Notes: generated from the letters alone by a model not told the origin. Positions 14,541 to 42,312 are shown, counted from the whole stretch's first letter. The stretch: DNA of 62,772 bases, filler included, from Candidatus Tectimicrobiota bacterium (GCA_016193065.1; 9 parts of 9 records of this genome joined end to end with filler, not necessarily neighbours in it), one strand, 5' to 3'. Made by a program: numbers and translations.

Positions 14541-15365
14541 CTAGGCACTATCCCCTCTCGGTTGGGCAGCCGCATGCTCTCCAGGCTTGCGGGCCGTTAC
14601 GATGATCGAGTAGACCAGCTCGGCGTGGCGGTGAGGCGGCACCACCTCCCGCAGGAAGTCGAGAAACTCCGTGGCGAAAAGCGGATAGCAGGCCAGTTCG
14701 GCCAGGCCAAAGGGTTTTCGCTCCAGCACCTGAATCTCTTCAAATCCGACGTTGAAAAACTTCTTCAGCAGCACTGGCTCCACCAGTGTTCCTGCCAGTC
14801 ACCCCGCCAGGGCCGCCGGGCTCTTGAGGACCGGCTCCGGCAGAGTCTCGGTCAGGACGAGGTCCGAAATCGAAACCCGCCCGCCAGGGCGAAGCACCCG
14901 TATCATTTCCGCCAGGGCGCGGCTCTTGCGCGTTGACAGATTGAGTACCCCATTGGAGATGATCACATCCACGGAGGCATCGGAGAGCGGGATCTCTTCC
15001 ATCATCCCTTCCCGAAGTTCCACGTTCGTAAGGCCCATGAGAGCGGTGTGTTTCTGCGCCCGCTCGAGCATCTTCGGAGTCATGTCAAGGCCGATGGCCT
15101 TCCCCTGAGGGCCTACGGCCATGGCCGCCAGAAGCGTGTCAATCCCGCCCCCACACCCCAGGTCGAGCACCACCTGGCCCGGCTTAAGGCCCGCATGGCG
15201 CACCGGGTGTGCGACCCCTAGAGCCAGCTCGACTGCCCCTCGAGGCAGTCGGGCCAACTCTTCGGGAGCATAAAGGGCCTCGGCTACAGCGGCCCCGTCG
15301 GACTGAACCTGTCCGTAGGTTTCGCGGATGATCGATCGGGCATCCGCTTCACTGAAATAAGGCAT
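14541..15365 (-). CDS. ArsM-like SAM-dependent methyltransferase, predicted selenoprotein (274 aa, Sec189)
   Basis: ORFs 14799-15365 and 14541-14783 are in one frame and separated only by TGA 14799-14801. Read-through gives ALAG-U-LAGTL, the ArsM GC[IV]AGAL motif; also VLDLGCGGG, VIISNGVLNL and terminal ARKP. Confidence 0.85.
14766..14798 (-). promoter_or_regulatory. Bacterial SECIS-like hairpin immediately 3' of the UGA
   Basis: mRNA UGA-C-UGGCAG-GAA-CACUGG-UGGAG-CCAGUG-CUGCUG: two stems, G-containing apical loop 16 nt after the UGA. Confidence 0.75.
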
Positions 15366-15392
15366 GGTGTTCCCCCTCTGCGACGAATCCCC

Positions 15393-15626
15393 TTAGGGAC
15401 GGTTCAAGGCCTGACGGATCCGCTCTTGCAGCCCCGATGGCAGCGAGGCCTCCGGCAGGCGGTTCTTGACAAAGGCGTCAAGCTGGCGGCTGAACGCCAG
15501 CTTATCGCAGCATGACAGACACTCCTGGAGGTGGGCCTCAAGATCCTCAAGCGACTCTCCGGAGAGGGCCCGGTCCAGGTACGCAAAGAACTGTTGCATG
15601 GCTTCTCCACAAGTCATTGGCTTCAT
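15393..15626 (-). CDS. Zinc-binding anti-sigma factor (ZAS/zf-HC2, RsrA/RshA-like)
   Basis: MKPMTC...HLQECLSCC (HxxxCxxC); soluble, 77 aa; ATGA overlap with the sigma stop. Confidence 0.9.
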   Translation of the reverse strand: MKPMTCGEAMQQFFAYLDRALSGESLEDLEAHLQECLSCCDKLAFSRQLDAFVKNRLPEASLPSGLQERIRQALNRP

Positions 15627-16234
15627 GTCTTCCACGTCCTCACTAGTCCACGCCGCTTGGCGCACTCCCACAACTCCCGCTCCAGGATCTTTCTCCCTCG
15701 GTGCAGGCGGGACATCACCGTGCCGACGGGACACCCCAAGACTTCCGCCAGATCCCGGTAACTCATCTCTTCTCCATAGAGCAGAACCAAAGGCAAACGG
15801 TAAACCTCAGGCAAGTGCAGCAAGGCCCTGCGTACCTCCTCATCCTCAAACTGTTTCAGAAAATCATCGTGGAGACAGTCCGAATAGGGGAAAGGATCTT
15901 CATCCCAGATCTGGTCATAGAGAGAGAACCAGTCCGGCTCTTTGGGATCCCCCATGGTAATTTCTCGAGTCTCGCTCCGGTGATGATCCATAACCAGGCG
16001 GCTCAGGATCTGGAAGAGCCACGACCGAACCCGCTCAGGTTGCCGCAATGTGGAGAAGGCCCGGAGCGCCTTAAGGTAGGTGTCTTGTACGAGGTCTTCC
16101 GCATCCTGTGAATCCCCTTTGAGGCGAACCGCTAATCGGTACAGGCTGTCAAGGTGTGGCAGCGTGAGCTCTTCGAACCGCTGTCTCTCCTGCGGATCGA
16201 GCGAGCTTGCCGTCCCTGTGTCCTGACCACCCAT
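15623..16234 (-). CDS. ECF sigma-70 factor (SigR/SigH-like)
   Basis: DAEDLVQDTYLKA region 2; MSYRDLAEVLGCPVGTVMSRLHRGR region 4. Confidence 0.93.
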   Translation of the reverse strand: MGGQDTGTASSLDPQERQRFEELTLPHLDSLYRLAVRLKGDSQDAEDLVQDTYLKALRAFSTLRQPERVRSWLFQILSRLVMDHHRSETREITMGDPKEPDWFSLYDQIWDEDPFPYSDCLHDDFLKQFEDEEVRRALLHLPEVYRLPLVLLYGEEMSYRDLAEVLGCPVGTVMSRLHRGRKILERELWECAKRRGLVRTWKT

Positions 16235-16295
16235 TCCCCCTCCCCTTTGTGCAGTTCAGGACCGCTCTGTTGGTTTTACTGCGTTTGCTTGTTAA

Positions 16296-16321
16296 GACGG
16301 TAAACCAGGAGGAAATATTCC
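16296..16321 (-). promoter_or_regulatory. Putative autoregulatory ECF promoter
   Basis: GGAAT-N18-GTC on the minus strand, close to the SigR/SigH consensus GGAAT-N18-GTT. Confidence 0.7.
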
Positions 16322-16476
16322 CGGCAAAACACGCTACCAGGGCCGGCCTGCCGCGTCAAGGCAAACCAACTTACGCCTTGACAAGGACTTAAAAGGGAAT
16401 AGCATATTATTTTCAATGGGTTGCTACTGGATCGATTCGACGGAGAATTGCCCAGATCCCATGAGAAGAAGGAATC

Positions 16477-18420
16477 ATGGCAAAGCGCAGTGACAAGAAA
16501 AACAGAAGGTTTTCCGCGACCTGGACCTGGGTGGGAGCGGCCCTGATCGTCGCCGCCTTGAGCGGAATCGCCACCGCCCTGACCTTGGGGCAGCTCAAGA
16601 CCGGTCTTCCGGATCTCAGGGTCCTGGAGGACTACCGCCCCATCACCACCAGCCGGTTTTACGCAGACGACGGCACGCTGATTGCCGAGCTGGCCAGCGA
16701 ACGCCGCATCCTGGTCTCCCTCGAGGACATCGCCCCGGAAGTGATTCAGGCCTTCATCGCAGTGGAGGACAAACGCTTCTTTGATCACAAGGGGATTGAT
16801 TTCAAGGCAGTAGTGCGGGCTACCATCAAGAACATTCTTTCCGCGAAGATCGTCGAGGGAGGAAGCACGATCACGCAGCAGGTGGCGAAAAATCTCTTCT
16901 TGAGCCAGAACCGCACCTTGAAGCGCAAGGTCAAGGAAGCCCTCCTGGCCCTGGAGATCGAGCGGCGCTACTCCAAGCGGGAGATCCTGCGCGTGTATCT
17001 GAACCATATCTACTTCGGCTATGGAGCTTACGGGGTCGAGGAAGCCGGCCGCACCTACTTCGGGAAATCGGCCCGGGAACTGACCCTGGCAGAGGCGGCA
17101 GCCCTGGCCGCACTCCCGCGCTCTCCAAAACGGTATTCCTATTTCAACAACCCCAAAGTGGCCCGGGAGAGACGCAATTTCGTTCTCGATCGCATGGTCA
17201 ACGTTGGGTTTATCACGCGCCAGCAAGCCGAAACCGCCAAGAAAGAGCGCTTTACTTTGAAAGCCCCCATCCGGGTGGCGAACACAGCTCCCTATTTCAT
17301 CGAGGAGATCCGCCGCTACATCGAGCAACGCTACGGGGATGAAGCCCTGACCTACGAAGGGCTGCGCATCTACACGACTCTGAACTTGGCCATGCAGCAA
17401 GCAGCCAACGCAGCAATCGAACAGGGGCTCAGAACCCTTGAGGATGAGAAAGTCGTCGCTCCCGCCCGCAGCCACGCCCCTCTGCAAGCGGCTCTGCTCG
17501 CCATTGATCCGGCCAGCGGGGAAATCAAAGCCATGGTGGGAGGGCGGGACTACCGGAAGAGCGAATTTAACCGGGCCACCCAGGCCGAGCGCCAGCCGGG
17601 CTCGGCTTTCAAACCGATTGTCTACCTGACGGCCATGGAAGCGGGCTACACCCCCAGTTCCCAGTTTGAAGATTCACCGGTCACTTACCAGATCCAAGGC
17701 TTCGGGGAGTGGAGCCCCAAAAACTGGGACAACGCTTACCTGGGCCCCATCACACTGAAGACTGCCCTTTCCCGCTCCGTCAACGTCGTCTCCGTAAAAC
17801 TCCTGGATGCCGTCGGATCCGAAAAGGTGGTCGGGATGGGGCGCCGCCTGGGCATTGAAAGTCCCCTGAAGGCGAATCTCTCCCTGGCGCTGGGAACCTC
17901 CGAAGTCAACCTCCTGGAACTGACCAGCGCTTATTCGATTCTGGCCAACCGGGGCCGGCGGGCCCAGCCTTACATGATCCGCAGGATCGTGGATCAAGAG
18001 GGGAAAGTTCTGGAGACAAACCAGCCTCTGATGGTTTCCGTGGTGGATCCCAAGACGGCCTTTCTGGTGACTTCGATGCTCGAGAGCGCCGTCCTGGAAG
18101 GAACTGCGTCCCGGGCCCGGGAGCTGGGAAGACCTGCAGCCGCCAAGACCGGAACCACGAGCGACGCAGCCGACGCCTGGTTCATGGGGTTTACCCCCCA
18201 GCTTGCCGCGGGCGTCTGGGTGGGCTACGACGATCGCAGCCCCCTGGGAGCCCACGTGTTTGCCTCGAATGCCGCCGGCCCCATGTGGGTCCAATTCATG
18301 AAAAAGGCCTTGGCGGACATCGCCGCCGCGGATTTCATCCTTCCCGAGGAGTCACCCCCAAAACCGGACGGAGTCAATGGGGCAGGGCAAAACTCACTTC
18401 CAACCGCCGCCACCCCTTAA
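16477..18420 (+). CDS. Class A penicillin-binding protein (PBP1A family)
   Basis: N-terminal TM; EDKRFFDHKG and GGSTITQQ transglycosylase motifs; SAFK, SVN and KTG transpeptidase motifs. Confidence 0.95.
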   Translation: MAKRSDKKNRRFSATWTWVGAALIVAALSGIATALTLGQLKTGLPDLRVLEDYRPITTSRFYADDGTLIAELASERRILVSLEDIAPEVIQAFIAVEDKRFFDHKGIDFKAVVRATIKNILSAKIVEGGSTITQQVAKNLFLSQNRTLKRKVKEALLALEIERRYSKREILRVYLNHIYFGYGAYGVEEAGRTYFGKSARELTLAEAAALAALPRSPKRYSYFNNPKVARERRNFVLDRMVNVGFITRQQAETAKKERFTLKAPIRVANTAPYFIEEIRRYIEQRYGDEALTYEGLRIYTTLNLAMQQAANAAIEQGLRTLEDEKVVAPARSHAPLQAALLAIDPASGEIKAMVGGRDYRKSEFNRATQAERQPGSAFKPIVYLTAMEAGYTPSSQFEDSPVTYQIQGFGEWSPKNWDNAYLGPITLKTALSRSVNVVSVKLLDAVGSEKVVGMGRRLGIESPLKANLSLALGTSEVNLLELTSAYSILANRGRRAQPYMIRRIVDQEGKVLETNQPLMVSVVDPKTAFLVTSMLESAVLEGTASRARELGRPAAAKTGTTSDAADAWFMGFTPQLAAGVWVGYDDRSPLGAHVFASNAAGPMWVQFMKKALADIAAADFILPEESPPKPDGVNGAGQNSLPTAATP

Positions 18421-18490
18421 TGCTCCGATCTCCTCGTCCCTGGCTTCCCGATTCCCCGGAGCACTCATACCGAATCGGTAAAGGGCAATC

Positions 18491-18728
18491 ATGGCAAAGA
18501 AAACACACACCCGCACAAGAAACACCGCACCCGGGGTAAGCCGTTTCACCGATCACGACGTCTACCTGTTTAAGGAAGGAAGCCATTTTCAACTATACGA
18601 GAAGCTGGGCTCCCATCTCATGAACGCGGGCGGCACGGCGGGAACCTTCTTCGCCGTATGGGCTCCTAACGCCGAGAGAGTCTCGGTCATTGGCGACTTC
18701 AACGGATGGGACCCTGTCTCGAATCCCC
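18491..18728 (+). CDS. glgB: 1,4-alpha-glucan branching enzyme (3' truncated by contig end)
   Basis: [20 protein letters not shown] and [20 protein letters not shown]. Confidence 0.9.
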
Positions 18729-18828
18729 NNNNNNNNNNNNNNNNNNNNNNNNNNNNNNNNNNNNNNNNNNNNTTAATTAATTAANNNNNNNNNNNNNNNN
18801 NNNNNNNNNNNNNNNNNNNNNNNNNNNN
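18729..18828. other. Artificial contig spacer
   Basis: N run with central TTAATTAATTAA (stops in all six frames). Confidence 0.98.
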
Positions 18829-22369
<3,541 letters not shown>

Positions 22370-22381
22370 ATCTCACTCCCC

Positions 22382-22608
22382 CTAGTGCCGGTCCAATTAA
22401 CTTCGCCTAACTTCGTATCACCCACAAGGTGGGTACCCGCCCTCGCTCTCCCTGCGGCGTACTCCCTTGGTACGCCTCAGTCGGCTCCGGGTACCCGCGG
22501 CTCTGCCGTGGGTGTGCGCCTGCACCCATCTGCGATGGGTACCCGGCTCGTTCTTTGGCCCGGCACGCCGCGCGCTCTTTCAGGGCAAAATAGCTAGAAC
22601 AGCACTGG
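22382..22608. mobile_element. MITE-like element between rpoB and rpoC
   Basis: Imperfect terminal inverted repeats CTAGTGCCGGTCCAATT / AGCTAGAACAGCACTGG; internal hairpins; left end is 15/17 identical to a TIR of the 28418-28526 element. Confidence 0.6.
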
Positions 22609-25600
22609 TTATTCTTCCTTATGACCATTCTCAATGAGCTCCACGTCCAGCGCCAAGCTCTGCATCTCCTTGATCAACACATTGAAGGACTCGGGCAGGC
22701 TCGGCTCCAGGGTATTTTCCCCCTTCACGATGGCCTCGTACATGCGGGTGCGGCCCTGCACGTCATCGGATTTTACGGTAAGCATCTCCTGCAGGGTGCG
22801 GGCGGCCCCGTAGGCTTCCAGAGCCCAAACCTCCATCTCTCCCAGACGCTGGCCCCCGAACTGGGCCTTGCCGCCCAGGGGCTGCTGGGTCACCAGAGAA
22901 TAGGGGCCTGTGGAGCGGGCGTGAATCTTGTCGTCGACCAGGTGGTGAAGCTTCATCATGTAGATCTGGCCCACCACCACCTTTTGATCGAAGGGGATCC
23001 CCGTCTTGCCGTCGTAGAGCACCGTTTCCCCGCTTTCGGGCAAACCGGCCCGCTGCAGGAGTTCACGGATCTGAAACTCTTTGGCGCCGTCGAAGACCGG
23101 GGTCGCATAATACTCCTCGAGCTTCCTGGCTGCCCACCCGAGACTGGTCTCCAGGATCTGGCCCACGTTCATACGGGAGGGGACCCCCAGGGGATTCAAG
23201 ATGAGCTCGATGGGCATCCCATCCTCCATGAAAGGCATGTCTTCCTCGGGAACGATGATGGAGACCACCCCCTTGTTGCCGTGGCGGCCCGCCATCTTAT
23301 CCCCCACCGAAAGCTTGCGCTTCATGGCAATGTAGACCTTGACCATCTTGATGACCCCGGGAGGAAGCTCGTCCCCCTTGCGCAGTCTGGCGATCTTCTC
23401 CGCCATGAGGGTCTCCAGGGCGTGAATCTGATCCTTGGCCCCCTCTTCAACCTCCTGGACGCTGTCGCGAACCGACTCGGAGTCGATCAGGGAGGCGATG
23501 ACACTCAGATCCTTGCCCCCGAACTTCTCCACCATGCTCAAGGTGATTTTCTTTTTCTTGGGGATCAGAACCTCCGAGTTCTTCTTGCGCTGGAAATCTT
23601 CACGGAGCGTGCGCCCTTCCAGGAGGTTGCGAATCCGTTTGTCGCGCTCCTCCTCCACGATGCGGATCTCGTCGTCGAAGTCCTTCTTGACGCGAGCGAT
23701 CTCTTCCTCCTCGATGGATTGAGTCCGCAGGTCCTTGTCAACCCCCTTGCGGGAGAAAACTTTCACGTCGATCACGGTGCCCTCAATGCCGGGCGGCACC
23801 GTGAGGGAGGTGTCCTTCACGTCCCCTGCTTTGTCTCCGAAAATGGCCTTGAGGAGCTTCTCCTCGGGGCTGAGCTGGGTCTCCCCTTTGGGGGTCACCT
23901 TGCCCACCAGAATATCCCCCGGGCGAACCTTGGCGCCCATGCGGATGATGCCGCTTTCATCCAGGTTCTTCAGGGCCTCCTCGCCCACGTTGGGAATATC
24001 CCGGGTGATCTCCTCTTTGCCCTGCTTGGTATCCCTGGCCTCAACCTCGAACTCCTCGATATGGATCGAAGTGAAGATGTCCTCCTTGACCACCTTCTCG
24101 CTGATGACAATGGCGTCTTCGTAGTTGTATCCACCCCAGGGCATGAAGGCCACCAGGATGTTCCTGCCCAAAGCGAGCTCCCCTTTATCCGTTGCCGGAC
24201 CGTCCGCAATCACATCCCCCGCTTCCACCCAATTCCCCTCCCGGACGATGGGCTTCTGGTTGATGCTCGTGTTCTGGTTCGAGCGCTGGTACTTGGTCAG
24301 CGTGTAAATGTCGACCCGGGGTTCCGTGCCGGACCCGCTACCTCCCGAAGTGGCCCTGACCACAACCCGAGTGGCGTCCACGCTCACCACTTCTCCGGGT
24401 GCTTTGGCAAGCACAACCGCCCCCGAGTTGCAGGCCGTGATGTACTCCATCCCGGTTCCCACCAGGGGCGCCTCGGTGCGCAGCAAAGGCACGGCCTGCC
24501 GCTGCATGTTGGAACCCATGAGGGCCCGGTTGGCGTCGTCGTTCTCCAGGAACGGAATCAGGGAGGCGGCCACGCTCACCAGCTGCTTGGGGGAAACGTC
24601 CATGTAGTCCACCTTGTCCGGAGGAACCATGACGAACTCCCCGCCCTTGCGGGCCGAGATCAAATCTTGGGCCAAATAGCCCTTCTCATCGAGCTCCGCG
24701 TTGGCCTGGGCAATAATGTATTTGTCCTCCTCGATGGCCGAGAGGAAATCCACTTCGTCGGTCACCTTGCCTTTTTGGACCTGGCGGTAGGGAACCTCGA
24801 TGAAGCCAAACTCATTGACCCGGGCATAGGTGCTCAGGGAAGCAATGAGCCCGATGTTGGGGCCTTCCGGGGTCTCGATGGGACAGATGCGACCGTAGTG
24901 GGTTGGGTGCACATCCCGGACTTCAAACCCCGCCCGCTCGCGGGTCAACCCCCCGGGTCCCAGAGCGCTCAGGCGGCGCTTGTGGGTGATTTCGGAGAGG
25001 GGATTCGTCTGGTCCATAAACTGGGAGAGCTGGCTGGAACCGAAGAACTCCTTGATGGCCGCCGAAACGGGCTTGGAGTTGATCAGATCATGGGGCATGG
25101 CTCCTTCCAGATCCTGGATGCTCATGCGCTCCCGGATGGCCCTCTCCATGCGAACCAACCCGATCCGGAACTGGTTTTCGAGAAGCTCTCCCACCGAGCG
25201 CACCCGGCGGTTGCCCAGATGGTCGATATCGTCCACAAGTCCGATCCCATGCCGCAGACCCAGAAGGTATTTGACCACCGCCACCACGTCCTGCGCGGTG
25301 AGCTTCCTCTGGTCCAGGGGGAGGTCGAGCCCCAGCTTGGTGTTGAGCTTGAGGCGGCCAATCCGGGAGAGATCGTAACGCTTGGGATTGAAAAACAGGT
25401 TCTCGAACAGGTTCCTGGCCGTATCGAGGGTCGGAGGATCACCGGGTCGCAGGCGCTTGTAGATGTCGATCAAGGCTTCCTCGGGAGTCTCCACCCGGTC
25501 GACCGCCATGGTATCCCGCAGAGCCGTATCGTACTGGTAGTTGTCGATGAAGAGGATGTGGAATTCCTTGATCTTTTTTCCCTTGATGATCTCCACCTTC

Positions 25601-26682
25601 TCCGGAGTGAGCTGCTCGTTGATCTCCAGCAGGACTTCTCCCGTGTTCAGATCCACTACGTCCCGGGCGATGAACTGCCCGACCAGGTCTTCCTCCAAGA
25701 TCGGGATCGAGTCCACTTTGAGCTGCTGGAGCCGCTTGAGGGCCCCCCGGGAGATCCGGCGTCCGGCCTTCACCAGCACCTCTCCGGTCTCCGAATCCAC
25801 CAAATCATCCCGGACCCGCTGGCGCAGCAGGAGATCGGAGACTTTCTTGACAAACGCGCCCTTGGTGGGCTGGTAGGACATCCTCTCCTTTTCATAGAAG
25901 GCGTCCAGCAGGTCCTCGGTGTTAAGACCGAAAGCCCGCAGGAGGATGGTGGCGGGGATTTTCCGGCGCCGGTCGATCCGCACATAGATGATTTCCTTGG
26001 CGTCCAGCTCAAAATCGATCCAGGAACCCCGGTAGGGAATGATGCGGGCCATGTACATCCCCCGGCCGCTGGCGTGACTCTTCCCCTTTTCGTGGCTGAA
26101 GAAGGCCCCCGGGGAGCGGTGCAGCTGGCTCACGATGACCCGCTCGGTACCGTTGATGATAAATGTTCCCTTCTCGGTCATCAGGGGGATCTCGCCCAGG
26201 TAGACCTTCTGCTCCTTGATGTCCTTAACGCGCAGCTCTCCCGTGGCGCTATCCTTCTCCCCCAGCACCATGCGCACCAACACCCTCAGGGGGTCCGCGT
26301 AGGTCATCCCCCGCTGGCGGCACTCATCCACATCGTATTTGCTGCGGTAGAGAACCTCCTGGTGGCATTTCTCGCAGACCACGCCCGGTGCACCCAACCC
26401 CCGGTACTCACCGCAGTCGCACTCCCAGGCGCCGATCTCGTAGCCCACGTACTCGAGAAACGAAGTCTCGTTGAAATCGCTGATGGGAAAAACGCTGCGG
26501 AAAACCCCCTCCAGCCCCTTGTCCTCCCGCTGCAGAGGATTGCGATCATACTGGAGAAACCACTCATAGGAGCGCAACTGGATGTCAATCAGGTTGGGGA
26601 TCTCGATGATCTTGGGGATGCGAGCGAAGTCGATCCGCTCTCTGTACTTGCTGCCCTGAGAGGTTGGCTTGGCCTCAAACAT
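22609..26682 (-). CDS. rpoB: RNA polymerase beta subunit
   Basis: [23 protein letters not shown] and GGQRLGEME motifs. Confidence 0.99.
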
Positions 26683-26740
26683 TCTCTTACTTCCTTATCA
26701 GTCTGGCACTGGGTGAAACGCCAGGTCAGAACGGCCCGAG

Positions 26741-27121
26741 TTACTTTATCTCCACCGTGGCCCCCACTGCCTCTAACTGCTGCTTGATCTTTTCAGCCTC
26801 CTCTTTGCTGACCCCTTCTTTGACGGTCTTGGGAGCACCGTCCACGAGATCTTTGGCCTCTTTCAGCCCCAGACTCGTCAAGGCTCGAACCTCCTTGATC
26901 ACCTGAATCTTCTTTTCTCCAACCGCGGACAGGACCACCGCAAACTCGGTCTTTTCTTCCTCCTGCGCTGCGGCCGCCGCCGGCGCCGCCGCGGCCACGG
27001 CAACAGGGGCCGCAGCGGTCACGCCAAAACGATCTTCGAGCTTCTTGACGAACTCCGAGAGTTCGAGGACCGTCATGTTTTCGATGTAGTGCATGACATC
27101 ATCTTGGGTGATGGTGGACAT
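26741..27121 (-). CDS. rplL: 50S ribosomal protein L7/L12
   Basis: [15 protein letters not shown] and [11 protein letters not shown]. Confidence 0.98.
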
Positions 27122-32076: not shown

Positions 32077-32262
32077 GTGAAGCTTATTGATGGGGACAAA
32101 GTGAAGCAGCTCCAGGTCATTCCCGACGAACGGGGTCGCCTCATGGAAATCCTGCGCTGCGACGACGAGAATTTTGTCAAGTTTGGTCAGGTCTACATGA
32201 CGACGGTTTTTCCCGGGGTCGTCAAGGGCTGGCATGACCATTTTTACCCCCTCTCTCCTTGA
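32077..32262 (+). pseudogene. rmlC: Truncated dTDP-4-dehydrorhamnose 3,5-epimerase-like gene
   Basis: DERGRLMEILR and PGVVKGWH, then a premature end at about 60 aa. Confidence 0.75.
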
Positions 32263-32387
32263 GAGCCGCTCTGAACCCAATGCCCCTTGTCGGTGTTTCC
32301 CGGTCCCTTCCTACCTGGAAGGGAAGGTCAGAATGAGGGTCTCTAAGGAATGCGCACGCGGCACAGATAGGATGAGGTGAGGCCGAT

Positions 32388-33398: not shown

Positions 33399-33415
33399 CT
33401 TCGCGAGGAACATGG

Positions 33416-34297: not shown

Positions 34298-34302
34298 GGG
34301 GG
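34266..34302. repeat. REP-like hairpin supplying the rmlD C-terminus and stop
   Basis: CCCTCTCCC-ctggc-GGGAGAGGGCAAGGGTGAGGGG. Confidence 0.65.
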
Positions 34303-34350
34303 ACTTCTTGCGCGGTGGTTTGCACTCATTGTAGCGGAGAGCTGTAAGCG

Positions 34351-34851
34351 ATGATCCCTGAGTGGTATGCGGTGCGCACCATGAGCCGGCATGAGCAGCG
34401 GGTCACTGACAGACTTACGAGCAAGGCTTTCCAGGTCTTTTACCCGACGCTGGAGGTCTGGAGTCAGTGGAAGGACCGCAAAACGAAGGTCCGGAAGCCC
34501 TTGTTTCCAGGCTATCTGTTCATCCAGTTCGAACTGACCCGGGAGGCCTGGATCGAGGTTTTGAAAACTCCGGGGGTGGCCAACATCCTGGGCTATACCG
34601 ATGAACCGACACCGGTGCCTGAGGAGCAGATTCACTCCGTGCAGACGGTTTTGACGGCAGGGGTTCCCGTCAGACCCCATCCCTACTTGAACGTGGGGGA
34701 TAAGGTCATCGTGATTGAGGGTCCCCTCAAGGGGGCGATTGGGATCTTCACCGGTTTTGATCACAAGAAGGGGAAGCTGATCATCTCGGTGGATCTGTTG
34801 TGCCGCTCCATCGAGGTAGAACTGGAAACCCGCGAGGTAGAGAAGTTTTAG
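34351..34851 (+). CDS. NusG paralogue, UpxY/RfaH-like antiterminator of a polysaccharide operon
   Basis: WYAVRT, WSQWKDRK...PLFPGYLF and KOW GDKVIVIEGPLKG. Confidence 0.9.
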   Translation: MIPEWYAVRTMSRHEQRVTDRLTSKAFQVFYPTLEVWSQWKDRKTKVRKPLFPGYLFIQFELTREAWIEVLKTPGVANILGYTDEPTPVPEEQIHSVQTVLTAGVPVRPHPYLNVGDKVIVIEGPLKGAIGIFTGFDHKKGKLIISVDLLCRSIEVELETREVEKF

Positions 34852-34971
34852 GGCGGCCGCGGTGGGAATTCGAGGTGGGTCCCTTTCAGCTAAGGGGTAG
34901 GTGGCCGCTGTCTTTCCTCCTGTGACTGACGGGGCGAAGCTGTCTTTATGGATAATAGAAGGCGGAAACTG

Positions 34972-35940
34972 ATGACGATCCAGGGCAAGCGCATTTTCCT
35001 AACTGGGGGAGCGGGCTTTATCGGCTCGACTCTGGCAGGCCGTCTCTTGGAGGACAACGAAGTTGTTATCTATGACAGCTTCGAGCGGGATGCTTTGAGC
35101 GCAAGGGAATTCTCCCATCATAAGAACCTGCGGCGGATCCGGGGTGACATTCTGGACCATGCGGGCATTCAGTCGGCGATGGAAGGAGCCAACATCGTAG
35201 TCCATCTTGCAGCCATCGCCGGGGTGGATACAGTAATCAAGAGTCCAACCTCCACAATGCGGGTGAATCTCCTGGGGACCTATAACGTACTTCAAGCCGC
35301 GCTGGGTCTAACGAACTGTGAGCGGGTCGTGACGTTCTCCACTAGCGAGGTGTTCGGTACCTACGCTTACCGTGTCAGCGAGGATGACACTGTGAATACC
35401 GGAGCGGTCGGAGAGGCTCGCTGGACGTATGCGGTCAGCAAACTGGCCGGAGAGCATATGAGCTACGCCTATTTCAAGGAATTTGCTCTGCCCACGGTCA
35501 TCGTGCGTCCGTTCAACGTTTACGGACCCGGTCAGGTCGGCGAAGGCGCGATTCACGTTTTCGTCCAGCGATCTCTCTCCGGCCAGGATCTCTTGATCCA
35601 TGGGGACGGTGACCAGATTCGATCCTGGACTTACATCGACGATATGGTGGATGGCATCCTGCTGGTGATGGGGCGACCAGAAGCCGTCGGGCAGTCTTTC
35701 AACCTCGGCAACCCACGAGGTACGGTGACGGTCAACGGCTTGGCGGAGCTCATCCTGGCCGTGACCGGCTCTTCTTCGAAGATCGCGTATGTCCCAAGAC
35801 AAGCAGCCGATGTCGAGCTGCGGATCCCCAGCATAGAAAAAGCCCGAACGCTCCTCGGCTTTCAACCGATCGTCGGTCTCCGGGAAGGAATCGAGCGAAC
35901 GGTGGCATGGTATCGGATCCTCAGGAACAACGACCGGTAG
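34972..35940 (+). CDS. NAD-dependent nucleotide-sugar epimerase/dehydratase
   Basis: TGGAGFIG, STSEVFG, YAVSK and RPFNVYGP. Confidence 0.9.
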   Translation: MTIQGKRIFLTGGAGFIGSTLAGRLLEDNEVVIYDSFERDALSAREFSHHKNLRRIRGDILDHAGIQSAMEGANIVVHLAAIAGVDTVIKSPTSTMRVNLLGTYNVLQAALGLTNCERVVTFSTSEVFGTYAYRVSEDDTVNTGAVGEARWTYAVSKLAGEHMSYAYFKEFALPTVIVRPFNVYGPGQVGEGAIHVFVQRSLSGQDLLIHGDGDQIRSWTYIDDMVDGILLVMGRPEAVGQSFNLGNPRGTVTVNGLAELILAVTGSSSKIAYVPRQAADVELRIPSIEKARTLLGFQPIVGLREGIERTVAWYRILRNNDR

Positions 35941-36737
35941 TAACTCGAATCGTCCGGCCTTCCGTCGGAAAAGAAGAAGCGGAGGCGATCGGGGAAGTGC
36001 TGGCCTCCGGGTTCCTTACCCAAGGTGCGGCCGTGGCGCGGTTCGAGGAACTTCTGGCGAGAGTAACCGGGGCGCCGTATGTAGTGGCGGTGAGTTCGGG
36101 AACCGCTGCTCTACACTTGGCGCTTTTGGCATTGGGAATCGGACCAGAGGACGAGGTCATCACGAGCGATTTTACCTTTCCCGCCACGGTAAACACGATT
36201 GAGCTTGTTGGGGCGAAGCCGGTTCTCTTGGATATTGATCTGGTCACCTACAACATGGAGGCAGATCAGCTGGAGAGCGCAATCACCCCGCGGACGAAGG
36301 CGGTCCTGGCGGTCCATGAGTTTGGGCTCATGGCGGACATGGAGACCATCGGGCAAGTGGCGGGCCGGTGGAGCCTTCCCGTCATTGAAGATGCGGCCTG
36401 TGCACTGGGGGCGAGCCAGCAGGTCCGGGGCCAGCCGGTCGTTGCAGGCTCGGCAGGAAAAGTGGGTTGCTTCAGCTTTCATCCACGCAAGTCCATTACT
36501 ACCGGCGAAGGAGGCTGCCTGACCACTGCGGATGAGGAACTGGCTCGGTGTCTCCGTGCACTGCGCAATCACGGACTGGAGAGTGCCGGAGGACAAGTCA
36601 ATCTGACGCTCCCGGGGCTGAACTATCGTCTCACAGAACTGCAAGCAGCCATGGGCGCCGTGCAGTTAAAAAAACTCGATTGGGCATTGTCCGAGCGCCG
36701 TCGATTGGCAGCTTGTTACAATGAGCGATTAGCATCT
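35907..36737 (+). CDS. DegT/DnrJ/EryC1/StrS sugar aminotransferase (3' truncated)
   Basis: SSGTAALHLAL, IEDAACALG and SFHPRKSITTGEGG. Confidence 0.93.
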
Positions 36738-36837
36738 NNNNNNNNNNNNNNNNNNNNNNNNNNNNNNNNNNNNNNNNNNNNTTAATTAATTAANNNNNNN
36801 NNNNNNNNNNNNNNNNNNNNNNNNNNNNNNNNNNNNN
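36738..36837. other. Artificial contig spacer
   Basis: N run with TTAATTAATTAA. Confidence 0.98.
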
Positions 36838-37959
36838 ATCCCAGTTGAACGGATCGATATCCTCATCGACCAAAATCACGGTCTTGAGCATGCGCCCGGC
36901 CCACGTTCCCAGGATCGCCAGGCCCATCATCTTCCCATATCCCTCGCAGGGCTTCTCGATGGACACAATGGCGTTGAACCCGGACTGGTTCACGTTAATT
37001 TGCTTGAGGCCGGGCAGTGGCACACTGTTGGCCACCCCTGCGGCGATCGAAAAGCTGTAAATCAGGTTCGTCTCCTGCGGCGGCCGCCCGCAGTAAGCTC
37101 CCTGGAGGATCAGATCGTTCCGGAACGTGATGGCCTTGATGCGGATGACCGTCCGTTGCCCCTTGGGACCGTAAAACCCGGTAAATTCTCCGAAGGGCCC
37201 CTCCTCCGCAGTCTCGCCGCGATGGATTTCCCCTTCCAGGACAATCTCCGCGTGGGCGGGAACTTCCAGAGGGACCGTCTCACAGCGCACGAGAGGGACC
37301 GGTTCTCCCCGCAGGGCACCGGCCATGGCCAGCTCATCCACGCCGAAGGCGAAAGGTCCCACGGTGGCCATCGTCACCACCGGATCCAGGCCCACCGCAA
37401 TCGCCACCGGGAACGGCCCGCTCACTTTCCTCCTCTGCATGGTGAGATGGCGATAAGAGGCCGCCAGAACCCCCAGGGTCCGTTTCCCCTGCACTTGCAG
37501 GCGGTACATGGCCGAGTTGCGAATCCCCGTTTCCGGATCTCTACTGATGATGCTGGGCAGATCAATGTAGGGTCCGCCGTCAAGCTCATTCAAGGTGGGA
37601 ATCGGAAAGCGACCGAGGTCCACATCGGACCCCAGGAGCACGTTTTCCTTGCAGGGACCCGTGGAAACCAACGTGGGCTCAATCGGATGTTTGGTGCGCT
37701 CGTTCCAGACGCGCAACAGCGCATCGGGCTCGCATCCCAAAGCAAGACCGAGGCGCTCCTTCGTCCCCAGCACGTTCATAACCACCGGATTCGAATAGCC
37801 ACGGGGTCGCTCAAAAAAGAGGGCCGGCCCATAGGCGTCGCTCACCTTCCTGCAAATGGCTCCGATCTCATACCGGACATCCACTTCCGCACTGACTCGG
37901 ACTAACTCTTGCTGTTTTTCCAGCTCGTCGAGAAAGTCCCTCAGGTCCGCAAATGGCAT
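36838..37959 (-). CDS. UbiD-family (de)carboxylase (3' truncated)
   Basis: FADLRDFL, EEGPFGEFTG and VDEDID; GGAGG RBS before ATG 37959. Confidence 0.92.
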
Positions 37960-38026
37960 AGCAGCCTCCTTTATAAAAGCCCCAACTTGACGAACTTCAG
38001 AATCCGTGATAAAAAACCCTGAATAT

Positions 38027-38061
38027 GTTCGAACTGCGAACGAAAATTTCAGTATGCGAAC
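38027..38061. promoter_or_regulatory. Putative IclR-family operator sites
   Basis: GTTCG-AACTG-CGAAC palindrome plus the related TTTCAGTATGCGAAC 20 bp further on, between divergent ubiD-like and iclR genes. Confidence 0.55.
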
Positions 38062-38088
38062 TTTAACTTTTGGTTCGCGAGGTTGTAA

Positions 38089-38970
38089 ATGAAAAGAACG
38101 CTTCATTTACCTAAATCATTTGCATCATATGCATTAACTAAGGCTGGCCGGAGTAAAGCCCCGAGGACTTCCAAAAAGACCGGGCGGAACCACACCCGGT
38201 CGTCTCCCCGTCCGGATAGTTCGGTGACTTCCCTGGAAAAGGCTCTGGACATCCTGTGCAGCTTCAACGAAGAGCGGGGAGATCTGTCGACCACCAAGCT
38301 GAGCGAGATCCTCGGTTATAACCGGACGACGGTTTATCGCTTGTTGTGCGTCCTCGAGCAGCGGGGGATGGTCAGCAAGAACCCGGAAACCAAGGCCTAC
38401 TCCTTGGGGCTTAAGATTCGGGAACTGGCGGCCCTCGACCTCTGGTACGGGGAACTCCGCCACAAGGCCATGCCGTTCCTCAAACAGCTCAGAGATATCA
38501 CGGGAGAAACGGCCGGGTTATACGTCCTCTCGACCCATTACGAGATCATCTGTGTCGAGAGGGCAGAGAGCCTTTCCGACCTGAGGCGAGCAGCCCACGT
38601 GGGTAGCGTTCTCCCCTTTGGCGGAGCCACCAGCAAAGTTCTCCTTCTCTCGTTCCTGGAGAAGGGCGAACCGGAATTGCAGCAGATATATGATAGCCTC
38701 CCAGTACAGAATCGGATCGTGGACTACCCGAGCCTTCTCCGGGAACTCCGCCAGCTTCAAAAGGAGGGGTATTGCTTCTCGGGCGGAAAGGTGCTTCCCG
38801 GAACCATCGGGCTCTCGACCCCCATCCGGCGCCAGGGGAGCATCATTGCGGCCCTGACCGTCTCGGGCCCCTCTAACCGCTTCGACCGGGAGGCAGTGCG
38901 CAAGTTCGCCCCCCTGATCGTGGACACGGCCCGCCAGCTCTCCGAGAGACTGGGTCCCGCCTCCCCGTAG
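38089..38970 (+). CDS. IclR-family transcriptional regulator
   Basis: SLEKALDIL, TTVYRLL, TGETAGL and ALTVSGP; start uncertain. Confidence 0.92.
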   Translation: MKRTLHLPKSFASYALTKAGRSKAPRTSKKTGRNHTRSSPRPDSSVTSLEKALDILCSFNEERGDLSTTKLSEILGYNRTTVYRLLCVLEQRGMVSKNPETKAYSLGLKIRELAALDLWYGELRHKAMPFLKQLRDITGETAGLYVLSTHYEIICVERAESLSDLRRAAHVGSVLPFGGATSKVLLLSFLEKGEPELQQIYDSLPVQNRIVDYPSLLRELRQLQKEGYCFSGGKVLPGTIGLSTPIRRQGSIIAALTVSGPSNRFDREAVRKFAPLIVDTARQLSERLGPASP

Positions 38971-39034
38971 GAGTCCTCCCGCAAAAAAGGCTGAGGAGCA
39001 CCGGGTCGTCCTTGAGAAGCCGGTCCGCCGCGGC

Positions 39035-39304
39035 TTAGGCATCCCGGGTACTGGGGAGCTCACCTACTTCTTTCAGGATCTTGATACCCCACGGTTTGGG
39101 GTACAGGCGACCAACCAAGCCCCTGACCCATAACAGGTCGCTACCAGGTAAAGTGTCGGGGTCGTCAGAGACGACCGCTTTTACGTATCGGGCTTCGTAC
39201 TTGGTCCTGCCCGGTGTTAGGTCCTTGATGAGTGGCTCGATCTCCGTCCCCTGTTTGAGGTTATCTAGGCTGTCCACAAAAGTCAGGTATTCCTTTCCGG
39301 CCAA
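39035..39304 (-). CDS. ppcC: Phenylphosphate carboxylase gamma-subunit-like protein
   Basis: 89 aa; IKDLTPGRTKY...VKAVVS...LWVR pattern recalled from PpcC; directly downstream of a ppcA-like gene. Confidence 0.75.
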   Translation of the reverse strand: MAGKEYLTFVDSLDNLKQGTEIEPLIKDLTPGRTKYEARYVKAVVSDDPDTLPGSDLLWVRGLVGRLYPKPWGIKILKEVGELPSTRDA

Positions 39305-39401
39305 ACTTTGCCCTCCTCCATGTGGCGATCGCCACCCCGTTGCGACAAGTGCTATCCGTTCGGATTCCGTTAAGAGTTCTCTACTGTCCTACAGCCTATG
39401 A

Positions 39402-40823
39402 CTAGAAGCCATACTGCTTCCATTCGGCGATGATCTTTTTCTGAAGAGCCTCGGGATAGGCGTTCTGGAAAGACATCCGGACCGGTATGTCACTCTCTTT
39501 GGTCCATTCCGCTGGCCAGGTGCAATCATATATCCCGGTAGCCAGCCTGCCTTTCGACCTCTCCTCAGGGCTTAGATAGGGCACCAGGGTCCATCCCTGC
39601 TTGTCCGGGTCAGCCGACACCCCTCGAATTGGATGCAGCCTGGTGCCCATGGCATGCATGACCTCATCCAGGTTAAAAACATCCACATCATCGTTCACGA
39701 TGATCACCTTGGGCACTGAAGTCCTGCGGCCGTGGATGACACCGGCAATCTGGGAGACAATTTCGCGGTTGCTCTCCTTGACGCTAACCACTGCCACCAG
39801 CGCCCCCATCTCTGGTGGAATATAAACGTCCACCACCGGCACACCGTATCTTTTCAGGCGGTTCTTGATGCCGATGGCCCCGGCGATTGAAGGGCCGATC
39901 TTCCCATCACTGATGCCCACGCCCTCGGGGCTCAGACATAGGATCGGATTGGACCGGTAGGTTATGGCCTTGATCTTGAATGCAGACCCGGGCGCCCAGC
40001 CCTGCGTGCGGAAGCCGGGAAACTCACCAAACGGCCCCTCCGGAAGCTCGACATCCCGCAGGATCTCGCCTTCCAGGATAATCTCCGCGTGAGCGGGCAC
40101 CAGCAGGTCATTAGTCTCGCATTTCACCAGCTCAATTGGCGACTGGGCCAGGGCTCCAGCGAAATCCGCCTCATCCTCGCCAATCCCGACCGGGGACGCG
40201 GCAACGATGGCACACAAGGGGTCCGCGCCAATCGCAACAGACACGGGCATGGGCTTGCCGGCCTGTTTGTATTTCTCCTGGATCAGGCCAAAGTGGCTGT
40301 ATGGTTTCAAATAACCGGTGATCAGCCGCCGGTTAAAGACCATCAGCCGGTACATGCCCCAGTTCGTCCAGCCCGTTTCGGGATCCTGGTTGATAACACA
40401 GTGCCAGGTTCCGATGTACCTCCCTCCATCGCCCTCGTGCACGGTGGGGATGGGGAAACGGTACAGGTCCACGTCATCTCCAAAGAGCTTGTTCTCCTTG
40501 CAAGAAGCGGCCTTGACAGCAACAGGCTTAACCGGCCGTGATAGCCGGCGCTCGAACTCCTGAAAGACTTCCCTCATCGGGGTGTCGGGGCCCAGCCCCA
40601 TGGCGATAGCCAGCCTCCGATAGGTGGCCACCGGAGCGCCGAGTATTCGTCCACCCTCGGGATAGTCCTTCAGCCGCTCGAACAGACACGCGGGCCCTTT
40701 CATCTCACAACTTCGCCCGGTGACGGCCGCGGCCTCGAGGTCCCAATCAACCTCACGGCTTACGCGTACGGCATCACCGGTTTTTTGCAGCGCTCCGACG
40801 AAATCCCTGTTATCCTTAAACAC
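39402..40823 (-). CDS. ppcA: UbiD-family phenylphosphate carboxylase alpha-subunit-like protein
   Basis: DNRDF..GDAVR..EVDWD, TYRRLAIAMG, HEGDGGRYIGTWH, NWGMYR and EGPFGE, resembling PpcA. Confidence 0.75.
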   Translation of the reverse strand: MFKDNRDFVGALQKTGDAVRVSREVDWDLEAAAVTGRSCEMKGPACLFERLKDYPEGGRILGAPVATYRRLAIAMGLGPDTPMREVFQEFERRLSRPVKPVAVKAASCKENKLFGDDVDLYRFPIPTVHEGDGGRYIGTWHCVINQDPETGWTNWGMYRLMVFNRRLITGYLKPYSHFGLIQEKYKQAGKPMPVSVAIGADPLCAIVAASPVGIGEDEADFAGALAQSPIELVKCETNDLLVPAHAEIILEGEILRDVELPEGPFGEFPGFRTQGWAPGSAFKIKAITYRSNPILCLSPEGVGISDGKIGPSIAGAIGIKNRLKRYGVPVVDVYIPPEMGALVAVVSVKESNREIVSQIAGVIHGRRTSVPKVIIVNDDVDVFNLDEVMHAMGTRLHPIRGVSADPDKQGWTLVPYLSPEERSKGRLATGIYDCTWPAEWTKESDIPVRMSFQNAYPEALQKKIIAEWKQYGF

Positions 40824-40833
40824 CGTGCCTCCC

Positions 40834-40992
40834 TCACGAAGTAATCTTCCCGGCTACGTTCAGCGCCCGAAAGGTTGCCGTATTGGAGCTGTTCCTCAAC
40901 TTCTCCAGCACCACTCCCGCCAGCGCTTTCTTGTCAACCTTCTGCTCGGCTACCAGAGGCAGCGTCTCGACGATCACCAACAGCTCAGGAAG
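40834..40992 (-). CDS. AMP-binding (acyl/aryl-CoA ligase) C-terminal fragment; not in ORF track
   Basis: LPELLVIVETLPLVAEQKVDKKAL matches the A10 lysine region. Confidence 0.7.
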   Translation of the reverse strand, partial: LPELLVIVETLPLVAEQKVDKKALAGVVLEKLRNSSNTATFRALNVAGKITS

Positions 40993-41092
40993 NNNNNNNN
41001 NNNNNNNNNNNNNNNNNNNNNNNNNNNNNNNNNNNNTTAATTAATTAANNNNNNNNNNNNNNNNNNNNNNNNNNNNNNNNNNNNNNNNNNNN
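40993..41092. other. Artificial contig spacer
   Basis: N run with TTAATTAATTAA. Confidence 0.98.
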
Positions 41093-42312
41093 CCCGGTCC
41101 CATGATCGAATCATTGGACCTGGCCTCGCCAGATTCAAGAGAGATCTGCAGCTTGACCAGACCCGTCATCTTCGCCAGGCGCTCTGCGGCCTTGCTCTGG
41201 ATGCGGGTCCCGTTCGTCATGAGCTGGAAAGAGTAGCCCGCCCTGTCAAGAGTTTCGAGAAAGTCGAAGAGCTCCGGGTGCAGCGTCGGCTCGCCCCCGG
41301 TGAAGAGGAAATGGGGTTTGGCGCCCACGTCATTCACCTGGGCCAGAACCCCGGCCAGTTCTCCCCCGGAGAGACGGTACGGATTACGGGTCATCGGGGA
41401 GGCCGCGTAAAGGCAGTGGGTACACGCCAGGTTGCAGGTCTCGGGCGCCACCGGGAAGACCCAGAGCTCCCGCAAAGCCTGGGCGGCGTTTTCGCGAGCC
41501 AGGCGGGTGTGCTGGGTTCTCTGCAGTGGAGCCCGCAAACTTGCCGCGGACTTGCGGGCACTCAAGGTGACGACATAGACCTCCGGGTTACGGGTCCGCC
41601 TGTTTTCGGAAGTTTCCAGAACCTCGATCCCGGTAAATCCAGCCTCAATGAATTGAATCAGAAAAGACTTTTCTGACAAGGCGCCCGCAATTCACTTGAA
41701 CCAGTCCTCCTCATGAAACCGTTCCTCCAGGCTTGGTTCGCGCTGCAGGACGATTTCGGAGCACAGGACGCGACCCCGGGGCTTCAGGACCCGGTGGACT
41801 TCTTCCAGAATCCTCTCTTTCTCCGGTGAAAGGTTGAAGATCCCGTTGCTGACGACCCAGTCCACCGAGCTATCCGGCAAGGGGAGTTCCTCGGCCAGGG
41901 CCTGAACGCAGCGGACATTGGGGAGTCCAAGTCGCCCCAGCCCTGTGACCGCCTTGCGGACCATCGCCAGGGACAGGTCGATGCCGATCACCTTTCCGGA
42001 AGGCCCCACCTTGCGCGCTAATAAGGCGGTATCCAATCCCCCTCCTGCGCCCAGTTCCAGGATGACCTCTCCCGGCGCAAATTCGCCGCAACGGGCCAGG
42101 TAGGAAGAGACTCCGGTGAAGGATTCCGCCAGCATCTCGGGGAAACTTTCAATCTCCCCGGCGGCATAACCTAAATCGAGGGCGTATTGCTTCCCCACCC
42201 TGAACTTATATTTTGAGGTGGAATTGAGCGCCACTTCGGAATACTTGCCGCGCACAAGCTCCCGAATTTCGCCGGACGAAAGCTCCCCGATCATCTTGAT
42301 GGCTGCTTCCAT
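41093..42312 (-). CDS. ArsM-like methyltransferase / radical SAM fusion, predicted selenoprotein (Sec207; 3' truncated)
   Basis: In-frame TGA 41692-41694 reads DWFK-U-IAGAL. Upstream: ILELGAGGG and VVSNGIFNL. Downstream: AGF..IEV..LSARK completes the MTase, then CNLACTHC, FTGGEP and MTNG. GGGAGG RBS before ATG 42312. Confidence 0.85.
41649..41694 (-). promoter_or_regulatory. Bacterial SECIS-like hairpin
   Basis: UCAGAAAA-GUC-UUUUCUGA stem-loop with the loop 23 nt after the UGA; UGAAUUG can pair with downstream CAAUUCA. Confidence 0.75.

Follow-up and report, generated by a model that had tools for sequence, protein, structure and literature searches.

ArsM-like methyltransferases with a single selenocysteine and without the other arsenic-binding cysteines in a Candidatus Tectimicrobiota genome

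We examined a stretch of 62,772 nucleotides from the genome of a Candidatus Tectimicrobiota bacterium (GCA_016193065.1; hereafter the window), which consists of nine contigs joined by N-linkers and contains two genes, A and B, for ArsM-like S-adenosylmethionine (SAM) methyltransferases with an in-frame UGA codon. We found that both are real selenoproteins and not nonsense mutants or broken genes, and that, judged by sequence comparison, they represent a distinct branch of the ArsM-like class I SAM methyltransferases, here called SNG-type. This branch has Val in the column of ArsM Cys72, Gly in that of Cys174, no N-terminal CC, and selenocysteine (Sec) or Cys in the column of Cys224, and it retains the SAM-binding motifs and the fold. 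Reports of Sec at a UxxG motif in ArsM-like proteins date back to 2007, and three types of fusion have been catalogued (PMC13188914, PMC9312934, PMC2398784). A description of a branch without Cys72 and Cys174 equivalents, or of the sigma factor operon reported below for it, was not found in NCBIfam release 20 or in the open-access literature; a prior description in Haft and Tolstoy 2025 is possible. Gene A lies on the contig at 1-18728 and gene B on the contig at 41093-45710, with the following features:

14541..15365, minus strand: gene A, a stand-alone ArsM-like SAM methyltransferase selenoprotein of 274 amino acids (aa) with a single U at residue 189, TGA being read as Sec
14799..14801, minus strand: in-frame UGA of gene A (Sec189), in the column equivalent to ArsM Cys224
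15204..15221, minus strand: LGVAHP of gene A, where alignments place Val in the column of GCGNP (Cys72)
14943..14957, minus strand: SNGVL of gene A, where alignments place Gly in the column of SNCV (Cys174)
41095..42312, minus strand: gene B, a methyltransferase(Sec207)/radical SAM fusion with 406 aa visible and the 3' end missing at the contig end
41692..41694, minus strand: in-frame UGA of gene B (Sec207), in the same column as that of gene A
41755..41769, minus strand: VLCSE of gene B with Cys184, a non-canonical cysteine (C184)

Alignments with solved and canonical ArsM proteins confirmed that the other ArsM cysteines have been lost throughout both families. When gene A was compared by phmmer with the ArsM chains of Chlamydomonas and Cyanidioschyzon, whose structures are solved, wGCGNPi was paired with lGVAHPv, iSNCViNLS with iSNGVlNLS, and lgeCLAGAL with lagULAGTL. 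In a multiple alignment with six canonical ArsM proteins (P0238-P0243), all of which have CC, GCGNP, SNCV and C[VL][AS]G, gene B reads TGVSSY, SNGIF and UIAG in the last three of these columns. The canonical motif at the Cys224 column is C[VIL][AS]G, for which genes A and B have ULAG and UIAG, respectively. To assess conservation, we used the best 120 clusters listed for gene A and for the N-terminal 206 residues of gene B. The column of the N-terminal CC was empty or non-Cys throughout families A and B, and the first Cys is found at residue 71 in gene A and at residue 75 in gene B. In the Cys72 column, the A clade has Val (nearly invariant), Leu or Met, and B has Val. At the Cys174 column, SNGIFN was present in all 120 family B relatives and SNGV[LI]N in 111 of the 120 family A relatives, the other nine not being matched by the search pattern; Gly was nearly invariant here. 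Such near-invariance of Gly and Val at the lost columns suggests a remodelled site under selection and not decay. Finally, the Cys224 column is occupied by U189 and U207 in the two genes and by Cys in full-length relatives, and all 17 sequences spanning it had Cys or Sec.

These results bear out what had been predicted from the DNA alone, namely that GCGNP is replaced by GVAHP or GVSSY, SNCV by SNGV or SNGI, and that neither protein has an N-terminal CC. The original prediction further held that the last position alone remains, as UGA. The UGA is indeed on the Cys224 column, but gene A keeps Cys71 and family B keeps C184. Cys71 is a non-canonical residue in the SAM-binding loop LGCGGG (LGCGxG in the family), and was Cys in 115 of the 120 close relatives and in 33 of the 43 sequences of a broader set, being Ser in the rest; the lone selenol or thiol is the sole fully conserved chalcogen residue of family A. 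In family B, the C184 position was Cys in 107 of the 120 relatives and Asn in 10, and it is on a predicted strand (residues 176-189) that follows the strand ending in SNG (residues 150-156). It was also observed that a His is located two residues past the lost Cys72 in 97 of the 120 close A relatives (LGVGHP, LGVAHP or LGVSHP), where canonical proteins have Asn; this His could be a ligand or a base.

The occurrence of Sec in both families was indicated by where their database entries stop. The majority of A clusters (112 of 120) were 188-190 aa long and ended with PAALAG or a one-residue variant of it just before the UGA (exactly KSPAALAG in 106), and the five full-length A clusters (265-290 aa) all had Cys at the UGA column. 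All 120 clusters of the gene B N-terminus were 203-243 aa long, and 119 of them ended with DWF[KTR]. The truncated clusters of both families came from many phyla. Several N- and C-terminal fragments of family B gave the same longest-contig figure (e.g. 661602, 19924 and 49223), which fits one B gene split by the gene caller. At the DNA level, the Cys224 column was TGA in the window (twice), L001 (twice), L002 and L004, and Cys in L003, L005 and L006 (L numbers denote comparison loci described below). In addition, the frame 3' of the gene A UGA is open and homologous for 85 codons, and homology continues 3' of the UGA in gene B too. On the tree described below, the A clade (28 rows) shows at least five exchanges of Sec and Cys, sister rows L002 and L003 differing in this respect, and the 34 SNG-type rows comprised 20 Sec and 14 Cys forms. 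The stops at one column in 112 and 119 of 120 clusters, the Cys in full-length relatives and the downstream homology identify both genes as selenoproteins. The assumption that two chance nonsense mutations are unlikely is well supported by the same counts. The genes do lie on different contigs and have unrelated hairpins, the sequences after the two UGAs being dissimilar:

14767..14796, minus strand: hairpin of gene A resembling a Sec insertion sequence (SECIS), with a GGA apical loop 21-23 nucleotides from the U of UGA
41657..41677, minus strand: hairpin of gene B with a 9-bp stem and a UCU loop, beginning 15 nucleotides past the UGA

The gene A hairpin with its GGA loop recurred in L001 and L004, and in the second methyltransferase gene of L001 the GGA loop sits on an unrelated stem. 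When four A-type hairpins were aligned, 81% of the cells were paired and three pairs were changed on both sides, compared with 0-1 in slid controls.

Some observations weigh against Sec incorporation. The covariation score of the A-type hairpin was matched by 40 of 500 shuffles, the alignment has four sequences only and L002 fits it poorly. The hairpin energies were no better than those of shuffled sequences (z of -1.09 for A and -0.11 for B), and selA, selB, selC, selD and tRNA-Sec were not found within the window, where the Rfam scan returned tRNA-Trp alone. If the UGAs were true stops, both genes would be truncated or decaying, and gene B would be a 206-aa methyltransferase fragment followed by a separate radical SAM gene. 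This is how public gene callers treat them, giving 188-aa and 206-aa entries and separate radical SAM entries, and the unremarkable hairpin energies and the lack of Sec machinery in the window point the same way. However, the stop falls on the same column in almost every cluster from many phyla and is TGA wherever the DNA was seen, full-length relatives have Cys precisely there, and the 85 downstream codons of gene A are still open and homologous. Moreover, a 188-aa product would be expected from the structural model to miss the final strands of the fold, and the fact that sister rows (e.g. L002 and L003) differ in having Sec or Cys is difficult to reconcile with decay. We therefore consider true stops highly improbable.

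Several lines of evidence separate the SNG-type proteins from canonical ArsM. Both genes matched Pfam Methyltransf_31 (115 bits for A and 83 bits for B). The NCBIfam model for ArsM (NF008823, cutoff 263 bits) gave 230.5 bits for gene A, 162.9 for gene B, 228.9 for a Cys form and 220-248.5 for other SNG-type proteins, so every SNG-type protein scanned was below the cutoff. AlphaFold models had a predicted local distance difference test score (pLDDT) of 95.1 for A and 84.0 for the methyltransferase domain of B; both matched ArsM/AS3MT structures best, with template modelling (TM) scores of 0.68-0.73, and ArsM/AS3MT chains occupied the top 11-13 ranks. In the model of gene B, the Sec loop appears flexible (pLDDT 54-64 about residues 190-210). 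When 1.84 billion representatives were searched with a profile, approximately 30,000 relatives had E <= 1e-10. The top 150 of these fell into two classes by their three columns, Cys-Cys-Cys and SNG-type (Val, Leu or Thr in the first, Gly in the second, and Cys or a truncation in the third), the exceptions being Ser-Cys-Cys (two), Ser-Cys-Val (one) and Cys-Asn-Cys (one); variants of the Gly column were Ala in P0254 and Gln in the chimeric P0356.

A quick maximum-likelihood tree was built from 85 domains with the trait columns masked, omitting P0356 for its chimeric C-terminus and one short sequence (L006_b). The A family formed a clade of 28 rows with a Shimodaira-Hasegawa-like approximate likelihood ratio (SH-aLRT) support of 96, the B family a clade of three rows with a support of 100 and a long stem, and the second methyltransferase genes of L001 and L005 a third SNG-type clade with a support of 97. 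The free tree required four changes of the SNG label. However, when all 34 SNG-type rows were constrained to one clade, the tree was better by 8.03 log-likelihood units and was not rejected by the approximately unbiased test (p-AU 0.644). Thus, the phylogeny gives no support to independent origins of A and B, and a single origin of the SNG-type branch is possible.

The genomic context of gene A was also different from that of canonical arsM genes. Gene A is the last gene of an operon for a sigma factor of the extracytoplasmic function (ECF) type, an anti-sigma factor and the methyltransferase, upstream of which lies a promoter-like element:

15623..16234, minus strand: ECF sigma-70 factor, first gene of the operon (NCBIfam TIGR02937, 86.7 bits, cutoff 42.9)
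15393..15635, minus strand: cytoplasmic zinc-type anti-sigma factor (zf-HC2, 80 residues; PF13490, 34.8 bits, cutoff 22.2)
16295..16321, minus strand: promoter-like element of the ECF type (GGAAT-N17-CGTCT), located upstream of the sigma gene

The anti-sigma factor has a Cys at residue 8 followed by H-x3-C-x2-C-C, reading ...TC...HLQECLSCC. For comparison, we fetched 80 loci, of which 74 contained canonical arsM and six an A-type gene (L001-L006). The peptide pattern used for the locus scan ended before the Gly column, and no B-type locus was among its matches. Based on tblastn, a homologue of the sigma factor was present in four of the six A-type loci (L001, L002, L003 and L005) and a homologue of the anti-sigma factor in three (L001, L003 and L005), always directly upstream of the A-type gene, whereas neither was found in any of the 74 canonical loci. 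L004 had no sigma gene within 2.3 kb upstream, and the sequence of L006 starts without upstream DNA. An element of the form GGAAT/CAATA/GGATT-N17-18-CGTCT was located upstream of the sigma gene in the window and in each of L001, L002, L003 and L005 (all five); in the window, the promoter-like element had two matches compared with 0.57 expected. The canonical control comprised 105 open reading frames (ORFs) in 19 of the 74 loci, with arsM genes and outer-edge ORFs excluded. ArsR/SmtB or ars genes (ArsC, Acr3, ArsA, ArsF or ArsG) occurred within 3.8 kb at 10 of these 19 canonical loci and at none of the six A-type places (hypergeometric p = 0.028). Thus, the regulatory setting of gene A differs from that of canonical arsM. 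No specific report on an ECF sigma factor in the context of such a methyltransferase was found in the open-access literature.

Some additional features of these loci were observed. L001 has two tandem SNG-type Sec methyltransferase genes (8001-8840 and 8803-9573) after the sigma/anti-sigma pair, the second of which falls into the third clade and carries a GGA-loop hairpin of its own; a ChrR-type cupin gene is located near them (9959-10432). In L005 (1976-4239), the sigma/anti-sigma pair is followed by a methyltransferase in the Cys form, an OsmC-like gene and a second SNG-type methyltransferase, also in the Cys form; the L005 sigma factor was recovered as two tblastn pieces in different frames, and a frameshift is possible. 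Among the canonical loci, L020 encodes an HgcC-like 'HgcAB-associated' protein (7550-7846; 125.6 bits, cutoff 70) directly upstream of arsM.

Gene B continues from its methyltransferase domain into a radical SAM domain (Pfam Radical_SAM PF04055, residues 292-398, 58.5 bits, cutoff 29.5), and is directly preceded on the same strand by a two-component pair, whose link to the function of gene B is suggested by position:

41413..41436, minus strand: CX3CX2C radical SAM cluster motif (C293, C297 and C300)
42601..43704, minus strand: histidine kinase (NCBIfam), upstream of gene B
43667..44506, minus strand: OmpR-type response regulator (NCBIfam), upstream of gene B

A search with the C-terminal part, for which the best 120 of 191 matches were used, gave 107 radical SAM proteins that share this cluster motif. 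Nearly half of these (45 of 107) start no more than 20 residues from SEKxF, the segment after the UGA, and each of the 45 has the end of the methyltransferase and the radical SAM domain in one frame; a full-length Cys version of the fusion was not seen in the best 120 of 191 matches. A C-terminal four-cysteine motif was present in 86 of the 107 homologues, and 106 ended with C[LRK][KR]G[SNGA][TSA], 87 of them exactly with CLKGST (P0124-P0236). Full C-terminal homologues (P0125, P0182 and P0237) reached no NCBIfam cutoff: the mycofactocin maturase model gave 77-97 bits (cutoff 265), NirJ2 and AhbD 62-80, and ArsS TIGR04167 45-51 (cutoff 300). The sequence of this domain thus resembles the SPASM/twitch maturase group (mycofactocin, NirJ and AhbD), all scores being below cutoff. 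A search of the protein atlas with the radical SAM fragment returned generic radical SAM clusters only, and a methyltransferase(Sec)/radical SAM fusion was not found in NCBIfam release 20 or the open-access literature.

Fusions elsewhere provide further hints about the chemistry. In P0244, AhpD/CMD and a canonical ArsM with three cysteines are joined to an SNG-type domain, which ends with ...DAWAT at the Sec column, and the true protein is probably longer than its entry. A TusA-like domain is attached to the C-terminus of the A-type Cys forms P0248 (29.0 bits) and P0250 (20.4 bits; cutoff 28.6), and in P0237 and P0239 a TusA-like domain (27.5 and 27.2 bits) replaces the methyltransferase before the B-type radical SAM domain. 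These repeated TusA fusions give a weak hint of sulfur or selenium carrier chemistry. Two other architectures were observed: P0249 joins an A-type methyltransferase to a cupin, and in P0283 an A-type methyltransferase with an internal shortening lies between a zf-HC2-like N-terminus and a cupin end.

We then compared the SNG-type proteins with known systems. Canonical ArsM and AS3MT (CmArsM 4FR0/4FS8/6CX6, CrArsM 5EVJ and human AS3MT 8XT7) share with them the class I fold, the N-terminal segment and the lid, and the Sec column of A and B is that of ArsM Cys224, which binds As beside the methyl group of SAM. On the other hand, Cys44/CC, Cys72 and Cys174 correspond to nothing, Val and Gly in A and B, both proteins score below the NF008823 cutoff, A is outside an ars operon and B has a radical SAM domain. 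The catalogued Sec-containing ArsM families have the UxxG motif in common with A and B. In a table of PMC13188914, the UxxG 'arsenite methyltransferase' family is attributed to Fomenko 2007, and the ArsM/AhpD (NF041537), ArsM/DUF2284 (NF041536) and methyltransferase/UXPK-star (NF047649) fusions to Haft and Tolstoy 2025. These three fusion models were within the top four NCBIfam matches of A and B, and were the top three for B. However, the scores of B (187, 181 and 164 bits) were far below the cutoffs (510, 460 and 575, respectively), and the AhpD, DUF2284 or UXPK tail is absent, gene A ending after the methyltransferase and gene B entering the radical SAM domain. The Cys versions of the AhpD fusion, P0238 and P0243, keep every canonical cysteine.

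Two pairs of enzymes, ArsM with ArsS (arsenosugar) and ArsM with ArsL (arsinothricin), are described in PMC8552651 as methyltransferase/radical SAM pairs on one metalloid substrate. Gene B resembles them in combining a methyltransferase of the ArsM type with a radical SAM partner. Nevertheless, these are separate proteins with a canonical-cysteine ArsM, while gene B is fused and SNG-type, and its radical SAM homologues, most of which have the C-terminal four-cysteine motif, are far below the ArsS cutoff. For the regulators of gene A, the closest likeness was with the zinc-containing anti-sigma (ZAS) systems SigR/RsrA and SigH/RshA, which also have a small soluble anti-sigma factor with an N-terminal Cys and H-x3-C-x2-C as well as an autoregulated ECF-type promoter; the SigH_actino model was among the top matches of the sigma factor (122 bits, below the cutoff of 251). 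They differ in that the third gene of the operon here is a methyltransferase, and thiol-stress sensing is suggested by family resemblance. By the same analogy, the position of gene A in this switch suggests that it is probably induced by thiol-reactive stress.

Taken together, the presence of true Sec, the distinct branch, the scores below the ArsM cutoff and the different regulatory setting suggest a different mechanism. In the mechanism that we propose, loss of the partner thiols would leave the enzyme unable to chelate As(OH)3 in the manner of ArsM. The substrate would instead be held by one Se-X (or S-X) bond beside the SAM methyl group, where atom X would be methylated, and release of the product would fall to an external thiol or to a redox partner, such as a thioredoxin-, AhpD-, OsmC- or TusA-like protein. 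We put the chances that SNG-type enzymes hold and methylate their substrate on such a single bond, and do not use three-thiolate ArsM chemistry, at about even. A site of this kind would suit substrates that need one protein ligand. According to PMC3877260, inorganic As(III) binds three cysteines, the monomethylated form (MMA) two and the dimethylated form (DMA) one, and according to PMC4211708 the second methylation does not need Cys72. An already methylated or thiol-conjugated trivalent arsenical, to which kinship with ArsM, the P0244 fusion and the Val/Gly pocket point, is our tentative first candidate. The second, somewhat more doubtful, is a chalcogen species (sulfur, selenium or tellurium) bound in a mixed selenosulfide or persulfide, as suggested by the thiol-stress type of regulator and by the links to TusA-like, OsmC and AhpD proteins. 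We give the two classes about even weight, with arsenicals slightly ahead. Gene A would be an effector of the ECF sigma/cytoplasmic zinc anti-sigma switch, and the radical SAM domain of gene B, judged from its fusion, probably performs a second, radical step on a Sec-held or Sec-methylated intermediate.

The concept of a mechanistically distinct single-selenol subfamily, with which this analysis started, is thus favored by the branch, the sub-cutoff scores and the regulation, but is challenged by C184 in family B. The options that came with it, namely already methylated arsenicals or another soft metal(loid) as the substrate, or a Se-methyl intermediate, are all still candidates. C184 lies on a strand beside the former Cys174 strand, many A-type Cys forms (10 of 43) have a Cys one position before the C184 site on the same strand, and either residue could serve as a second ligand. 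Other points also count against the proposed mechanism: the TusA matches are marginal, only one of the four exceeding the cutoff; the neighbourhood comparison covers six A-type places; and the single-cysteine TtArsM of Thermus thermophilus is reported still to methylate As(III) (PMC8649762), so that cysteine loss is no proof of lost arsenite activity.

The last point leads to the possibility that SNG-type proteins are ordinary arsenite methyltransferases in which other residues, or small As-bound thiols such as glutathione, stand in for the missing As(III) ligands. By both sequence and fold, no family is closer than ArsM, P0244 joins an SNG-type domain to a canonical ArsM, and candidate ligands are available, namely His53 of GVxHP in A, which is widely conserved among its relatives, and the conserved Cys184 in B. 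A two-cysteine ArsM (Huang 2018) is also cited in PMC8649762. TtArsM offers a partial precedent in that it is a SAM methyltransferase for which arsenic handling by one cysteine and two histidines has been proposed (PMC8649762). However, according to the same source it is evolutionarily distant from other ArsM proteins, its C77 is N-terminal, it has no Sec, and it is controlled by an ArsR/SmtB-type repressor. For the SNG-type proteins, by contrast, ArsR and ars genes were absent at all six A-type places and present at 10 of 19 canonical loci, an ECF sigma factor or a two-component system takes the place of such a repressor, the scores are under the curated ArsM cutoff, and the fixed replacements, Gly and Val, suggest that the pocket was remodelled and not that ligands were swapped. 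Ordinary arsenite methylation therefore appears unlikely to us. In another reading, Sec would be a methyl carrier: SAM would methylate the selenol, and the Se-methyl group would be passed on, in gene B to the radical SAM domain. The in-frame fusion of a single-selenol methyltransferase domain to a radical SAM domain in 45 junction-spanning clusters, the lack of a full-length Cys fusion in the best 120 of 191 matches and the flexible Sec loop of the model agree with this possibility. RlmN and Cfr are known to act through methyl-cysteine with radical SAM chemistry. On the other hand, a methyl carrier leaves the stand-alone A family unexplained, Cys forms are common (14 compared with 20 Sec forms), and the radical SAM domain is like SPASM/twitch maturases and not like RlmN or Cfr. 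We consider a methyl carrier quite unlikely, and the tethering of the substrate on a single bond remains our preferred mechanism.

Other parts of the window were also surveyed. ORFs were counted only if backed by family matches, because the crude ORF caller was prone to antisense ORFs in GC-rich DNA (e.g. 22621-26787 on the plus strand, at the expected rpoB site). The window contains three genes of UbiD-family decarboxylases (5601-7034, plus strand; 36838-38106, minus strand; and 39402-40823, minus strand), the last of which is nearest to the phenylphosphate carboxylase alpha subunit (416 bits, below the cutoff of 565). A PIN-domain toxin gene and a MntA/HepT-like nucleotidyltransferase toxin-antitoxin pair are located at 53039-54533 on the plus strand.

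On the broadest view, the SNG-type proteins would constitute a widespread and largely unannotated one-selenol class that tethers and methylates thiol-reactive metalloids or chalcogens, in which stand-alone members are the output of a thiol-stress sigma factor and, in the fused form, a radical SAM step that makes a C-metalloid or C-Se bond is coupled to Se-bound or Se-methyl chemistry; this view is speculative and rather unlikely. If our reading is true, hundreds of database entries for families A and B are stumps cut at the Sec codon (188 aa and 206 aa). Surveys of arsM that require at least three of the four cysteines (as in PMC5552862) would then drop the SNG-type branch, and surveys that accept any ArsM-like protein would credit it with arsenic methylation for which there is no evidence. 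A natural ArsM-like scaffold with one selenol would offer a clean test of the role of each cysteine and of the contribution of selenium, and the sigma/anti-sigma operon would be a handle for finding the substrate by its inducer. Finally, the radical SAM fusion would point to a two-step chemistry not described so far, and the fused form may either make organo-arsenic or organo-selenium compounds in a new way or be the selenium counterpart of radical methylation through methyl-cysteine.

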